The notes under the pieces are model-generated. The model did not search any database, was not told where the DNA came from, and saw only the letters and a list, made by a program, of their open reading frames with translations. A program made the translations under genes and the position numbers. Below, one piece after another: positions 3,912 to 29,977 of a stretch of DNA of 64,000 bases (positions within the stretch are counted from its first letter, which is position 1; each line of letters opens with the position of its first letter). Origin of the DNA: Escherichia coli (GTDB lineage Bacteria > Pseudomonadota > Gammaproteobacteria > Enterobacterales > Enterobacteriaceae); NCBI RefSeq assembly GCF_046105845.1, contig NZ_CP151004.1; one strand, given 5' to 3'.

Positions 3912-5183
3912 TTCGAGCATTTTGCGGATCTGCTCCTGTTGATGTGTTGTCAACGTCAGGTCCGTATAGATCAGCGGTGGTGAAAAGAGCGGTAACGGCA
4001 TGGTATAAGGAGCAATAATCAGTGCCGCGCTGCGCGGAGCGCCTGTCTGCAAAAATACCTTTACCGACATATGTTTAATGTTGAGCGGCAGTAACGTTAG
4101 TTCGCGTAGCTGCTGCTCAATCTGCGCTTCTCGCTCGCTATCATTCCCGGTCAGTAGAATAATCTGTTTCTTATGCAGGTCGTTTTCCTGCATTAGCCAG
4201 GCACCGAAAATCACCGCGACCAGACCGCTTTCCTCATCAGAAAGATGGACGCCGTATTCACTTTCAAATCCGGCCAGCGCCGCGCGGGTGGTGCGCACCA
4301 GGCGTGGATACAGGCGGGCGAACTCTTCCGGCAGGGTGTTATCAATACCGATGGCAAACAAACTGCGATTTAACGCCTGGGCGAGGTGGGTATAAAGCTG
4401 ATCGCATAACCCTTGTTCATCATAAAAACGAACATTTCCCAGCTCACGAAAGTGGTTTACCAGACGTTTGATAGACTGACGCAGTTGTCTGTCCCGCTGA
4501 TGCGCATCCCGCAGTGGATCGGGAACCCGCAACATGGAAAAAAGTAATGCCATAAACAGTGGCTCATCAGGCGGTACAGGCTGGAGCGCCCGACGCTGCC
4601 AGTGGCGTCCAATTTCCTGCGCTACCTGAAATTCAAGGCAGGATTCCGCCCAGCGACGTTGGAGCGGATTAAACTGAGGCGTAATTCCAGCGTGGTGTTG
4701 CAGCAAACAATATTGCAGATACAGACACAGGAAATGAATATCGCGTGTTTCAAAGCGTTTTTGCAGCCGTCGGGAGCAGAGATTCACTAACGCTTGTAGA
4801 TTGGTATCGTCGTAAAAGTTACGCGCAATTCCGCGCCGCTTCAGTTCACTCTTCAGGGCGGGGGTGAAATGGCTGGTAATAAATGACGGACAGAGACGGA
4901 AACCACGTCGTAGCCAGTGAAATAAACACAAACGTTGGTTAAGCACTGTACCTTCAACCCGGTAGCTACCGTCATAACCAGTAGTCAGTGTGAGTTGATG
5001 ATAGCGCAGGATCTCCCGTCCTGTTTCGCTGATATCAAGACTGGCAATATCATCATCCACACCATTAAGCTCGCTGAAAGTTGCCGTGGTGGCGGTCAAC
5101 CCCGGCTGAAAGAGCGTCAGCAAGATCTGGCAGCGGCGCTGGGGAGCCGAAAGGACAGATGGTGGAGCAAGCGTAGGCATCAT
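3903..5183 (-). CDS. csiE: stationary-phase inducible protein CsiE
   Basis: ORF in expected position; start taken at MMPTLAPP (426 aa) rather than the longer ORF-track start at 5204. Confidence 0.85.
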   Translation of the reverse strand: MMPTLAPPSVLSAPQRRCQILLTLFQPGLTATTATFSELNGVDDDIASLDISETGREILRYHQLTLTTGYDGSYRVEGTVLNQRLCLFHWLRRGFRLCPSFITSHFTPALKSELKRRGIARNFYDDTNLQALVNLCSRRLQKRFETRDIHFLCLYLQYCLLQHHAGITPQFNPLQRRWAESCLEFQVAQEIGRHWQRRALQPVPPDEPLFMALLFSMLRVPDPLRDAHQRDRQLRQSIKRLVNHFRELGNVRFYDEQGLCDQLYTHLAQALNRSLFAIGIDNTLPEEFARLYPRLVRTTRAALAGFESEYGVHLSDEESGLVAVIFGAWLMQENDLHKKQIILLTGNDSEREAQIEQQLRELTLLPLNIKHMSVKVFLQTGAPRSAALIIAPYTMPLPLFSPPLIYTDLTLTTHQQEQIRKMLESA

Positions 5184-8043: not shown

Positions 8044-8127
8044 GCCTGATGCGACGCTTAACGCGTCTTATCAGGCCTGCAGTGCACAGAGCCTCAGGTC
8101 GGATAAGGCGTTCACGTCGCATCCGAC
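8044..8127. repeat. REP (repetitive extragenic palindromic) element pair
   Basis: GCCTGATGCGACGCTTAACGCGTCTTATCAGGCC and GTCGGATAAGGCGTTCACGTCGCATCCGAC, canonical REP palindromes. Confidence 0.8.
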
Positions 8128-8189
8128 AACAGGTACAAACGCCACGATAAAAAAATGGCACTGAAGGTTAAATACCCGACTAAATCAGT

Positions 8190-8300
8190 CAAGTAAATAG
8201 TTGACCAATTTACTCGGGAATGTCAGACTTGACCCTGCTATGCAATACCCCCACTTTTACAATAAAAAACCCCGGGCAGGGGCGAGTTTGAGGTGAAGTA
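8190..8300 (+). promoter_or_regulatory. isc operon promoter / IscR autoregulatory region (candidate)
   Basis: Upstream of iscR; contains TTGACC...TATGCAATA-like elements and a GC hairpin (CCCCGGGCAGGGG) in the leader; exact operator not verified. Confidence 0.45.
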
Positions 8301-8304
8301 AGAC

Positions 8305-8793
8305 ATGAGACTGACATCTAAAGGGCGCTATGCCGTGACCGCAATGCTTGACGTTGCGCTCAACTCTGAAGCGGGCCCGGTACCGTTGGCTGATATTTCC
8401 GAACGTCAGGGAATTTCTCTTTCTTATCTGGAACAACTGTTTTCCCGTCTGCGTAAAAATGGTCTGGTTTCCAGCGTACGTGGACCAGGCGGTGGTTATC
8501 TGTTAGGCAAAGATGCCAGCAGCATCGCCGTTGGCGAAGTGATTAGCGCCGTTGACGAATCTGTAGATGCCACCCGTTGTCAGGGTAAAGGCGGCTGCCA
8601 GGGCGGCGATAAATGCCTGACCCACGCGCTGTGGCGTGATTTGAGCGACCGTCTCACCGGTTTTCTCAACAACATTACTTTAGGCGAACTGGTTAATAAC
8701 CAGGAAGTGCTGGATGTGTCTGGTCGTCAGCATACTCACGACGCGCCACGCACCCGCACACAAGACGCGATCGACGTTAAGTTACGCGCTTAA
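8305..8793 (+). CDS. iscR: Fe-S cluster-containing transcriptional regulator IscR (Rrf2 family)
   Basis: 162 aa; Rrf2 HTH; cluster-ligand Cys residues [13 protein letters not shown]. Confidence 0.95.
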
Positions 8794-9033
8794 TTTAACC
8801 GTCCTGTTTCGTGTTGCATCTGCGTTGACTGCACATACTCACTCTGGTCACTTACTTATGTAAGCTCCCGGAGATTCGTAAGTTTGTCAACTTGCTGAAA
8901 CCCGAAACAGTTAGGTTAAAGATAACAAGATATTAGAATCAGGCCGGGGCGTATCGCGCTCCGTAAACACGGTCGTACATCCAGCCGGTAGCCTGGTTCC
9001 TTGCATTGAGTGATGTACGGAGTTTATAGAGCA

Positions 9034-14029: not shown

Positions 14030-14273
14030 TTTCCGCGTCATGCTTCACGCCGCAGATGCGTTGGCTGCGCTCGTTCACCCCAGTCACATAGTTATCTATG
14101 CTCCTGGGGCTTCACTCACTTGCCGCGTGATTCGGCCTTTTGGCCTCACCCCTCCGGGGCCAGCGCAAGCGCTGTTCAAAACGCAATGCGTTTTGTCCTG
14201 CAACGCGAATCATTTAGCGGAAAAATCCTGGGGCTGCCAACTGGCGGCCCTTTTACAAAGAAGGATAACTAGA

Positions 14274-15675: not shown

Positions 15676-16452
15676 ATGTCCGAAACAAAAAACGAACTTG
15701 AAGATCTGCTGAAAAAAGCAGCAATCGAACCGGCGCACCGCCCGGCCTTTTTCCGTACTCTACTGGAATCCACCGTCTGGGTGCCGGGTACGGCGGCGCA
15801 GGGCGAGGCTGTGGTTGAAGATAGCGCGCTTGATTTACAGCACTGGGAAAAAGAAGACGGCACCAGCGTCATTCCTTTTTTTACCTCGTTAGAAGCACTT
15901 CAACAGGCGGTTGAAGACGAACAGGCATTTGTCGTAATGCCCGTTCGCACATTGTTTGAGATGACCCTTGGCGAAACGCTCTTCCTTAATGCCAAACTGC
16001 CAACCGGTAAAGAATTTATGCCGCGTGAAATCAGTTTGTTGATTGGTGAAGAAGGAAATCCGCTGAGCAGCCAGGAAGTACTGGAGGGCGGTGAATCGCT
16101 GATATTATCGGAAGTCGCAGAGCCACCAGCACAAATGATTGATTCTCTCACCACCTTATTTAAAACTATTAAGCCGGTGAAGCGTGCTTTTATTTGTTCA
16201 ATTAAAGAGAACGAAGAGGCACAGCCTAATTTACTTATTGGCATTGAAGCCGATGGTGATATCGAAGAAATTATTCAGGCGGCGGGAAGTGTAGCGACCG
16301 ATACATTACCTGGCGATGAACCCATCGATATTTGTCAAGTGAAAAAAGGGGAAAAAGGAATTAGCCACTTTATTACCGAACATATTGTGCCATTCTATGA
16401 ACGTCGCTGGGGTGGTTTTTTGCGTGACTTTAAACAGAACCGGATAATCTAA
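15676..16452 (+). CDS. sseB: enhanced serine sensitivity protein SseB
   Basis: Start at MSETKNELEDLL (258 aa); synteny downstream of pepB. Confidence 0.9.
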   Translation: MSETKNELEDLLKKAAIEPAHRPAFFRTLLESTVWVPGTAAQGEAVVEDSALDLQHWEKEDGTSVIPFFTSLEALQQAVEDEQAFVVMPVRTLFEMTLGETLFLNAKLPTGKEFMPREISLLIGEEGNPLSSQEVLEGGESLILSEVAEPPAQMIDSLTTLFKTIKPVKRAFICSIKENEEAQPNLLIGIEADGDIEEIIQAAGSVATDTLPGDEPIDICQVKKGEKGISHFITEHIVPFYERRWGGFLRDFKQNRII

Positions 16453-16753
16453 AATATGCCGCCCCAAAGGGCGGCATTCGGGCTTACCTGCTGTTCTGAA
16501 GGTTGTTAACCACCAATAAATTGTTGCCGGAGAGATTCCGGTTATTATTTACCTCGGTTAACAGCGCACCAGAAACAATAAGTACGATACAAAAGCACCG
16601 TATCTTCATTGTGCGGTCCATGCGAAGACCGCATCACGACAGCACCACTGGCGATATTGCCGCGATAGCAAGCGCTGAGACGCGCGTGCCCTAACGGTCG
16701 CGGAACATCCTTTCCTTAAGCCAGCGCCCGCTTGCGAGACGGCGGAAAGGTCC
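16450..16753 (-). ncRNA. candidate RyfA-like transcript (putative type I toxin mRNA)
   Basis: Minus-strand -10-like TATTAT (16766-16761) and minus-strand terminator hairpin ATGCCGCCC-tttg-GGGCGGCAT + ATTTT (16477-16451) delimit ~304 nt; position matches the sseA-sseB intergenic sRNA locus known in enterobacteria (from memory). Confidence 0.4.
16484..16609 (-). CDS. candidate small hydrophobic protein (41 aa; 45 aa from ATG 16621)
   Basis: Minus-strand ORF MKIRCFCIVLIVSGALLTEVNNNRNLSGNNLLVVNNLQNSR with one predicted TM-like segment; weak SD; in frame with an upstream strongly SD-preceded mini-ORF (16708-16691) separated by two stops. Confidence 0.3.
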   Translation of the reverse strand: MKIRCFCIVLIVSGALLTEVNNNRNLSGNNLLVVNNLQNSR

Positions 16754-16797
16754 GCAGTGGATAATACACTAACAGAACAATAATAACTCTCTTTTGC

Positions 16798-16930
16798 TTG
16801 ACAAAAAGAGGGTTACTGGCGAGTATTGTCTCCGCTGAGACGCGCTTGCATTACTACGGTAATACAACCTGCTGGAAAGGCCGCGAACCGGACCAGCAAC
16901 AAAAAACCGCCTGATTTTGGCGGTTTTTTG
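16798..16930 (+). ncRNA. candidate small RNA unit 1 (promoter to intrinsic terminator; antitoxin-like)
   Basis: Perfect -35 TTGACA (16798-16803), 17-bp spacer, GAGTAT (16821-16826); terminator ACCGCC-tgatttt-GGCGGT + T6 (16901-16930); 5' end 16833-16845 identical to plus strand 16673-16685. Confidence 0.4.
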
Positions 16931-17073
16931 TTGTTTAAAGAAAATGAAATTACACGTTTAAGTAATATCTTTTACCAGTTAGTATATTTTAATATTAAGC
17001 GGGATTTTTTTATATTTGTCTGAATTCGGACTGATAAGCCAAATGAATTCAAAATCTATCCTTTTTTATCTAC

Positions 17074-17198
17074 TTGACATCGTTGATGCATAAAGCGAGT
17101 ATTGAGTAGACGAGATACACTTGCAGTAATACAACCTGCTGGAAAGGCCGCGAACCAGACCAGCAATAAAAAAACCGCCAAATTCGGCGGTTTTTTTA
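17074..17198 (+). ncRNA. candidate small RNA unit 2 (paralogous tandem copy of unit 1)
   Basis: Same architecture: TTGACA (17074-17079), 17-bp spacer, GAGTAT (17097-17102); ~73-bp block 17126-17198 ~88% identical to 16857-16930 including terminator CCGCC-aaattc-GGCGG + T7. Confidence 0.3.
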
Positions 17199-17213
17199 TT
17201 GCCTGTAAAAAGC

Positions 17214-28748: not shown

Positions 28749-29867
28749 ATGCATAACCAGGCTCCAATTCAACGTAGAAAATCAACACGTATTTACGTTG
28801 GGAATGTGCCGATTGGCGATGGTGCTCCCATCGCCGTACAGTCCATGACCAATACGCGCACGACAGACGTCGAAGCAACGGTCAATCAAATCAAGGCGTT
28901 GGAACGTGTTGGCGCTGATATCGTCCGTGTCTCCGTACCGACGATGGACGCGGCAGAAGCGTTCAAACTCATCAAACAGCAGGTTAACGTGCCGCTGGTG
29001 GCTGACATCCATTTCGACTATCGCATTGCGCTGAAAGTAGCGGAATACGGCGTCGATTGTCTGCGTATTAACCCTGGCAATATCGGTAATGAAGAGCGTA
29101 TTCGCATGGTGGTTGACTGTGCGCGCGATAAAAACATTCCGATCCGTATTGGCGTTAACGCCGGATCGCTGGAAAAAGATCTGCAAGAAAAGTATGGCGA
29201 ACCGACGCCGCAGGCGTTGCTGGAATCCGCCATGCGTCATGTTGATCATCTCGATCGCCTGAACTTCGATCAGTTCAAAGTCAGCGTGAAAGCGTCAGAC
29301 GTCTTCCTCGCTGTTGAGTCTTATCGTTTGCTGGCAAAACAGATCGATCAGCCGCTGCATCTGGGGATCACCGAAGCGGGTGGTGCGCGCAGCGGGGCGG
29401 TTAAATCCGCCATTGGTTTAGGTCTGCTGCTGTCTGAAGGCATCGGCGACACGCTGCGCGTATCGCTGGCGGCCGATCCGGTCGAAGAGATCAAAGTCGG
29501 TTTCGATATTTTGAAATCGCTGCGTATCCGTTCGCGAGGGATCAACTTCATCGCCTGCCCGACCTGTTCGCGTCAGGAATTTGATGTTATCGGTACGGTT
29601 AACGCGCTGGAGCAACGCCTGGAAGATATCATCACTCCAATGGACGTTTCGATTATCGGCTGCGTGGTGAATGGCCCAGGTGAGGCGCTGGTTTCTACAC
29701 TCGGCGTCACCGGCGGCAACAAGAAAAGCGGCCTCTATGAAGATGGCGTGCGCAAAGACCGTCTGGACAACAACGATATGATCGACCAGCTGGAAGCACG
29801 CATTCGTGCGAAAGCCAGTCAGCTGGACGAAGCGCGTCGAATTGACGTTCAGCAGGTTGAAAAATAA
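28749..29867 (+). CDS. ispG: 4-hydroxy-3-methylbut-2-en-1-yl diphosphate synthase
   Basis: 372 aa; [4Fe-4S] Cys ligands (CPTCSR ... GCVVNGPGE). Confidence 0.95.
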
Positions 29868-29977
29868 TAACGTGATGGGAAGCGCCTCGCTTCCCGTGTA
29901 TGATTGAACCCGCATGGCTCCCGAAACATTGAGGGAAGCGTTGAGGGTTCATTTTTATATTCAGAAAGAGAATAAAC

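Follow-up and report, generated by a model that had tools for sequence, protein, structure and literature searches.

The ryfA gene was reportedly described in 2001 as the source of a small RNA (sRNA) of ~300 nt. Here we compare the RyfA-like locus of an Escherichia coli genome (contig NZ_CP151004.1 of assembly GCF_046105845.1, of which one stretch of 64,000 nt, referred to as the window, was analyzed) with its described relatives, and we note at the outset that the locus, its open reading frame (ORF), the leader structure, the antitoxin sRNA, and a short upstream ORF (uORF) are all already published. In Salmonella enterica serovar Typhimurium, an RNA of the RyfA family encodes the 38-aa toxin TimP (ORF at +145 to +261; Andresen et al. 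2020, PMC7667032), an inner-membrane protein that is toxic when overexpressed, and mutation of the TimP ATG removes both the protein and the toxicity (PMC7667032). A divergent sRNA, TimR, represses TimP translation (PMC7667032, PMC11228461). The Salmonella 5′ untranslated region (UTR) forms four stem-loops (SL1 to SL4), with TimR binding SL2 and the Shine-Dalgarno (SD) sequence trapped in SL4, and a pseudoknot between SL1 and SL3 is indispensable for the translation of timP (Eleftheraki and Holmqvist 2024, PMC11228461); a 2026 paper contributed two further interactions, site 2-4 and site 1-2, that belong to a structural switch (PMC13000454).

The same ORF was described in uropathogenic E. coli (UPEC) CFT073 at +135 to +270, with 45 aa (Bessaiah et al. 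2021, PMC8205139), and Northern blots for the transcript (~300 nt) are published for K-12, CFT073, and avian pathogenic E. coli (APEC). RyfA RNAs differ in a 5-nt 'variable region' of the types TGTTT, CGCGT, CCCCC, and CACCC, and are accompanied by divergent RyfB sRNAs (Fris et al. 2017, PMC5333039). The RyfA1/RyfA2-RyfB1/RyfB2 genes of Shigella dysenteriae and the RyfA genes of CFT073 and APEC also lie between sseA and sseB (PMC5333039, PMC8205139, PMC13188913). The evidence presented below makes it very probable that the region under study is the E. coli copy of this enterobacterial timP-timR (ryfA-ryfB) type I toxin-antitoxin locus.

The timP-timR locus between sseA and sseB

Comparison of the window with Rfam (cmscan) returned a full-length ryfA match (RF00126) on the minus strand at 16451-16755, covering model positions 1-296 of 296 with 308.2 bits (E=6.5e-86; gathering score, 80 bits), and the minimum-free-energy (MFE) fold of this RNA has a z-score of -6.6 relative to shuffles; judged by these two measures, the features of the region are far beyond chance. 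The locus lies between sseA and sseB and is convergent with sseB, a layout shared with the RefSeq E. coli records, and every E. coli record inspected carries a RefSeq timP annotation at the corresponding position. Of the 5426 complete E. coli genomes, 5425 contain DNA resembling the 305-nt RNA, the closest match being strain N3 (99.3% identity), whose TimP differs at one residue.

The timP mRNA (= RyfA RNA) is predicted in this genome as a minus-strand transcript of ~305 nt (16451-16755, from the Rfam match); the CFT073 numbering, in which the 45-aa ORF begins at +135 (PMC8205139), places +1 at 16755. An initial annotation of this stretch, made from the letters alone, had delimited such a transcript by a -10-like TATTAT and a terminator, and both are present. 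The -10 element (16766-16761) precedes the Rfam 5′ end by 6 nt and is kept in all E. coli locus variants read; a consensus promoter scan of the region did not report it because its -35 is poor. The intrinsic terminator (16451-16477; stem 16477-16456, then ATTTT as the U-tract) was found by a terminator scan, and four pairs of its stem (helix 14) are changed on both sides in the 17-sequence alignment described below.

The timP coding sequence (16484-16609, minus strand; 41 aa plus stop, MKIRCFCIVLIVSGALLTEVNNNRNLSGNNLLVVNNLQNSR), which is also called by RefSeq, matches the NCBIfam model toxic_TimP (NF040796) with 79.7 bits against a curated cut-off of 45 bits, residues 1-39 falling on profile positions 1-39 of 40. 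The ATG codons at 16621 and 16609 open ORFs of 45 and 41 aa, as first read, and share the TAA stop at 16486-16484; profile position 1 is the M of MKIR (ATG 16609), and the 45-aa form aligns from its residue 5 only. The identity with RyfA/TimP to which the initial annotation had pointed, as a type I toxin-antitoxin-like locus, is thus borne out by both family matches, the 41-aa hydrophobic ORF being TimP. As read from the sequence, K2 and R4 are followed by 13 hydrophobic residues (C5-L17), and TimP, a small protein, is predicted to bear a signal-like hydrophobic segment at its N terminus; SignalP and Phobius predictions are published for the CFT073 homologue (PMC8205139). By analogy with the Salmonella experiments, E. 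coli TimP would be toxic, targeted to the membrane, and controlled at translation.

For comparison, genome contigs were scanned with a GC-rich pattern, GCGGTCNNNGCANNGACCGCAC, which gave 15 usable Enterobacterales loci among the matches listed, from Escherichia (3), Citrobacter (2), Superficieibacter, Yersinia (5), Rahnella (3), and Erwinia, along with at least about 105 chance matches from unrelated high-GC genomes. No Salmonella locus was among the matches listed, and Salmonella was compared through the published papers and the Rfam and NCBIfam models. All 15 loci have full-length ryfA matches, and together with the window and E. coli N3 they form an alignment (A1) of 17 sequences from six genera. 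A protein word search for TimP reached Escherichia and Shigella homologues only. The initial annotation had made its reading depend on a conserved ORF in homologous loci, and the TimP ORF (MK...) is open from the aligned ATG in all 17 sequences, with 38-42 aa and indels of 3, 6, 6, and 3 nt. The upstream ATG 16621 (MDRT) is not conserved and is missing in Y. similis, Rahnella, and Erwinia. Across A1 there are 49, 37, and 56 changes at TimP codon positions 1, 2, and 3, respectively, a modest third-position excess in a test of low power that we use only in support.

The first 146 nt of the timP mRNA is an untranslated, highly structured leader, and the MFE fold reproduces SL1-SL4 (all on the minus strand). 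When the Rfam consensus structure and the published pseudoknot were mapped on A1, 94.3% of cells were paired, compared with 37-51% in a control with the 3′ partners slid by 1-3 columns, and 15 base pairs were changed on both sides. SL1 (nt 7-46; 16710-16749), which is also seen in the fold, has its helices 1-2 paired at 93-100% in the 17 homologues and contains pseudoknot site 1, CGCUGGC (16720-16726; site naming from PMC13000454). Site 1 is complementary to site 3, GCCAGUG (16646-16652), in SL3 (nt 90-122; 16634-16666; helix 6, 90.7% paired), and this pseudoknot helix is 93.8% paired, with three of its seven pairs changed on both sides. SL2 (16669-16689) is the hypervariable TimR-binding hairpin, identified by a repeat and its TimR pairing, and is of the 'CGCGT' type, which falls in the ryfA1-like class (variable-region types, PMC5333039). 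SL4 (16613-16632) is a hairpin over the timP ribosome-binding region that contains ATG 16621, with a role assigned from PMC11228461 and PMC13000454; none of its seven pairs varies among the 17 sequences, although these bases were demanded by the search pattern. Site 2, GACCGU (16694-16699), lies between SL1 and SL2 and has pairing potential with the 5′ flank of SL4. In the window sequence, complementarity holds for sites 1-3, 2-4, and 1-2 alike, and by complementarity alone the site 2-4 duplex (6 bp) has -10.1 kcal/mol and the site 1-2 duplex -12.6 kcal/mol.

The cognate antitoxin gene timR ('type A'; 16798-16931, plus strand) is recognized by a promoter, a terminator, and complementarity to SL2. 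Its promoter reads TTGACA (16798-16803), a 17-nt spacer, and GAGTAT (16821-16826), and the predicted TimR RNA extends from ~16833, a 5′ end derived from the -10 element, to ~16931, with a strong terminator at 16901-16929; it folds as a body hairpin plus terminator (z=-4.6). The 5′ sequence from ~16833, CGCUGAGACGCGC, is a perfect complement of timP nt 71-83 (16685-16673), the core of SL2, giving 13 contiguous pairs and 16 of 17 overall in ungapped complementarity. The corresponding 13-nt exact repeat on the minus strand (16673-16685 and 16833-16845) occurs at no other place in the window. Among the loci of the six genera, 12 of 16 carry a 10-17-nt copy of their own SL2 on the timP strand, 75-97 nt upstream of +1, so that a divergent RNA would have the complement at its 5′ end. 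The promoter and terminator scan did not find the promoters or terminators of the TimR genes, which rest on sequence reading, folds, and conservation. RNAduplex predictions between 45-nt TimR 5′ parts and the whole leader gave long interior-looped duplexes with energies overlapping those of shuffles, and were replaced by ungapped complementarity.

By homology with Salmonella, the timP mRNA would be made in a translationally inactive form, with sites 1 and 2 paired, SL4 closed, and the ribosome-binding region locked. In a switch to the active fold, the SL1-SL3 pseudoknot (sites 1-3) would form and site 2-4 pairing would open SL4; the TimR 5′ end may then bind SL2 of the active form and block initiation, a repression that is taken from Salmonella, and any TimP made would insert in the inner membrane.

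The Salmonella timP-timR locus belongs to the same Rfam and NCBIfam families as the window locus and resembles it in SL1-SL4, in pseudoknot sites 1-3 and the site 2-4 and 1-2 interactions, in a TimP start near +145/+147, and in a divergent sRNA whose 5′ end pairs with SL2 (PMC7667032, PMC11228461, PMC13000454). It differs in that TimP has 38 rather than 41 aa and the uORF 8 rather than 5 codons, the SL2/TimR seed sequence is unlike that of the window, and an STM2534-like gene, for which the window has no counterpart, lies between sseA and timP; the window adds a second, orphan TimR-like gene. The 45-aa/41-aa ORF of the window matches the CFT073 ORF at +135 to +270 (PMC8205139), and a divergent RyfB/TimR of ~100 nt is shared with the Shigella and E. 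coli loci. The window has one ryfA and two TimR-like genes, in contrast to the two full timR-timP modules of S. dysenteriae and E. coli IMT16316.

More distant type I loci (tisB/istR-1, shoB/ohsC, zorO/orzO, and dinQ/agrB) share a small hydrophobic toxin, a long structured 5′ UTR with a sequestered ribosome-binding site, and a divergent, partly complementary antitoxin sRNA that pairs far upstream of the start codon. Unlike in these loci, the timP mRNA is activated by a pseudoknot structural switch and not by 5′ processing (PMC11228461). No sequence homology to them was found, although the TimR-like genes have weak, sub-threshold Rfam matches to OrzO-P and AgrB.

A possible role of RyfA as a regulatory RNA in E. 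coli

The alternative that survives best is that RyfA in E. coli is mainly a trans-acting regulatory sRNA, with the TimP ORF silent or dispensable and TimR acting as its sRNA-sponge partner. The phenotypes of a UPEC CFT073 ΔryfA mutant are restored by ORF-disrupted alleles (PMC8205139), APEC phenotypes have been ascribed to RyfA and TimR as RNAs (PMC13188913), and in S. dysenteriae overproduction of RyfA1 lowers ompC mRNA and the peptide was not detected (PMC5333039). The peptide went undetected in these E. coli and Shigella studies, which ascribe the phenotypes to the RNA (PMC8205139, PMC5333039, PMC13188913). Nonetheless, none of the 17 homologues has a closed ORF, all indels within it are multiples of three, it satisfies the curated TimP model, and the leader elements for translation control (SL4 and sites 1-4) are conserved. 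We therefore regard this alternative as possible but unlikely as a full account, and note that it is compatible with the toxin reading, as a dual or mainly RNA-level role in E. coli is possible.

Several observations weigh against the toxin-antitoxin reading of this locus, among them the CFT073 complementation and the S. dysenteriae peptide result just described. The experimental demonstration of TimP toxicity comes from Salmonella, and production or toxicity of TimP in E. coli or Shigella is a prediction. The -35 of the timP promoter is weak, and the invariance of SL4 is partly imposed by the search pattern. Finally, the window has a C at 16686 (timP nt 70) that breaks one SL2 pair and one TimR pair; N3, N54, and IMT16316 have an A at this position, with which TimR pairing is 17/17 instead of the 16/17 with the window C. 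The 45 nt at 16668-16712 are identical in no complete E. coli genome (best match, 97.8%), and the C at 16686 could be a private variant or a sequencing error.

The upstream ORF and the in-frame stop triplets

Upstream of timP, the purine-rich AAGGAAAGG precedes ATG 16708-16706, from which a uORF of five codons (M-F-R-D-R) runs to TAG 16693-16691 (uORF, 16691-16708, minus strand; its codons 4-5 are site 2). The same frame continues through ...SALAIAAISPVVLS to TGA 16636-16634 and onward to the TimP stop, in phase throughout and broken only by these two triplets. All of this reads as the initial annotation had it; the interpretation differs. The 'strong SD' that it saw is the base-paired 3′ arm of the lower SL1 stem, and its 'hydrophobic stretch' is the translation of SL2-SL3.

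An unusual leader-peptide arrangement had been one of the two readings offered, and the short uORF does exist and is known in Salmonella, where the putative AUG is at +53-55, the stop is at +77-79, and the uORF overlaps the TimR site (PMC11228461). Leader-peptide control would have the uORF (5 codons here, 24 in K-12-type alleles, and in every case ending no later than the conserved TGA) translated, with ribosome transit remodeling SL2, SL3, and SL4 so as to tune timP in the manner of mok/hok. The SD-like run before ATG 16708 would fit, as would the overlap of the uORF with the TimR site and site 2. So would a 24-codon form that starts at the aligned ATG (nt 48), stops precisely at the conserved TGA/TAA (nt 120), and stays open across three separate genera, namely in E. 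coli L016, Escherichia sp. E1V33, the K-12/O157 alleles (L122, L123), Superficieibacter, and three Rahnella species (the loci other than K-12/O157 being L016, L056, L005, L099, L067, and L029). However, a 24-codon open frame in such GC-rich sequence has by our own estimate a chance of ~0.35, the SD-like run is paired in SL1, and the substitution pattern is not coding-like. The aligned uORF ATG is present in Escherichia, Superficieibacter, and Rahnella but missing in Citrobacter sp., Yersinia, and Erwinia, and replacing the AUG that starts the Salmonella uORF with AAG left timP translation unchanged (PMC11228461). The hok/mok/sok system likewise combines a toxin ORF with a sequestered ribosome-binding site and an upstream ORF in the leader, but mok overlaps hok and is needed for its translation. 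The timP uORF, in contrast, is not conserved, is dispensable in its Salmonella counterpart (PMC11228461), and ends 81 nt before the timP ATG in the window and 24 nt before it in the 24-codon form; across the 17 homologues we found no conserved uORF that reaches or overlaps the toxin start, as hok/mok-type coupling would entail. Leader-peptide control is accordingly very unlikely, and a functional role of any kind for the leader uORF hardly less so.

A related and similarly doubtful idea is that the length of the uORF is set by the SL2/TimR-specificity allele and that, if it is translated in E. coli, alleles differ in basal TimP expression or TimR dependence. If true, ribosomes crossing SL2-SL3 in the 24-codon form would disrupt the pseudoknot and the TimR site, and there would be an allele-dependent layer of control not seen in Salmonella, whose uORF has 8 codons.

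The other reading offered, and the main one, was a membrane-toxin ORF of ~75 codons from ATG 16708, split by two lineage-specific nonsense mutations into a pseudogene or recently inactivated toxin. The continuous frame is in its favor, and so, in part, is the alignment that was called for to see whether the stops are lineage-specific: the TAG is allele-specific, and the TGA is not. Loci of the 'CGCGT' SL2 type (the window, N3, N54, IMT16316 copy 1, and E. whittamii) carry the TAG, which sits at the 5′ base of SL2, and K-12, O157, and other SL2 types have AAA at this position. A 45-nt query spanning the uORF and SL2 has copies of at least 90% identity in ~2990 of 5426 complete E. coli genomes (~55%), which makes the allele with the TAG a common one. 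At TGA 16636-16634, by contrast, the aligned column holds TGA in 16 sequences and TAA in one, spans the six genera, and is in frame with timP in 16 of 17. The TGA belongs to a nearly invariant CGTGA at the end of the SL3 3′ arm. Because it is found in all 17 homologues (as TAA in one), is in frame in 16, and is part of SL3, the TGA is ancestral.

Further results point the same way. No continuous ORF from ATG 16708 into TimP was found in the six genera sampled, and none of the TimP homologues recovered from the protein database has an N-terminal extension in the proposed frame, the longer TimP-like gene calls being either C-terminal read-throughs or deletion fusions in another frame. The NCBIfam profile begins at the M of MKIR, and in Salmonella mutation of that gene's TimP ATG abolishes protein and toxicity (PMC7667032). 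In the upstream frame of A1, third codon positions vary least (13 changes, compared with 24 and 23), the reverse of coding. Preservation of the frame does not discriminate, because 14 of 17 sequences have the same 99-nt distance between the uORF ATG and the timP ATG. An argument from 1-2-nt indels that would break the proposed frame was dropped, these indels being upstream of ATG 16708, within the SL1 loop. The split toxin gene is effectively refuted and has only the slightest chance of being correct: the two in-frame 'stops' are triplets within the structured, covarying SL1-SL4 leader of timP.

The spacer mosaic and the meaning of the locus

A second TimR-like gene (17074-17200, plus strand) adjoins the 3′ end of sseA and has the same body as the type A TimR. 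By reading and by fold, its promoter comprises TTGACA (17074-17079) and GAGTAT (17097-17102) and its terminator lies at 17168-17197, of the same type as in TimR; the predicted RNA (~17109-17200) folds with z=-5.7. Its 5′ seed ('type B'), GACGAGAUACACUUGCAG, is unlike the cognate TimR seed, and no complementary site for it was found in the timP leader or elsewhere in the window. A cognate timP allele would carry an SL2 matching GCAAGUGUAUCUCGUC. Among 5426 complete E. coli genomes, 394 carry the gene at 99% identity or more, once per genome and unannotated; a second copy was not found in the E. coli genomes searched. It has the look of an antitoxin-like sRNA left as an orphan by the loss of its cognate toxin copy.

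The sseA-timP spacer as a whole is a mosaic. An Rfam IS128 match (16887-17065, minus strand; 166.7 bits) combines AT-rich spacer with the TimR terminator in reverse complement, and IMT16316, with its two complete timR-timP modules, has the same spacer after an 87-nt sseB 3′ fragment. The IS128 region looks like the scar of a timR-timP-sseB′ tandem duplication rather than an independent sRNA gene. In the K-12-like strain ML35, the timP SL2 (TGTTT) pairs at 20 positions with the distal TimR-like gene and at 11 (including G:U) with the proximal one, and a 20-nt remnant of a second timP 5′ end adjoins the distal gene.

Rearranged copies are seen in C. amalonaticus (8069-8340 of locus L078), Y. aleksiciae (5125-5409 of L114), and Y. 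similis (4554-4837 of L069), in which the 5′ part of 'ryfA' is the reverse complement of a TimR body, fused to timP at SL2. Such fusions are as expected from deletion between a short direct repeat formed by the TimR seed complement and SL2; a deletion of this kind would remove the timP promoter, SL1, and the timR promoter, and so has probably inactivated the module. Directly upstream of the rearranged Y. similis ryfA, on the same strand, is an Rfam Ysr224 match (4361-4467, plus strand; 133.9 bits), and no complementarity between this region and the timP leader was found. The window has other Rfam matches above threshold, to the iscRS stability element (8923-9032, plus strand) and sroE (29867-29958, plus strand), and a marginal AaHKsRNA22 match upstream of pepB (14131-14203, minus strand; 45.3 bits against 39.8) that recurs in the E. 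whittamii locus.

For the family, two published results, the covariation of the pseudoknot and the co-variation of TimR with its target, are independently confirmed in the fresh set of six genera. For E. coli, sequence alone is compatible both with a TimP that is made and toxic and with a RyfA whose main action is that of an sRNA. The locus also carries a caution for the reading of such genes, in that in-frame stops within a long structured leader can mimic a broken gene.

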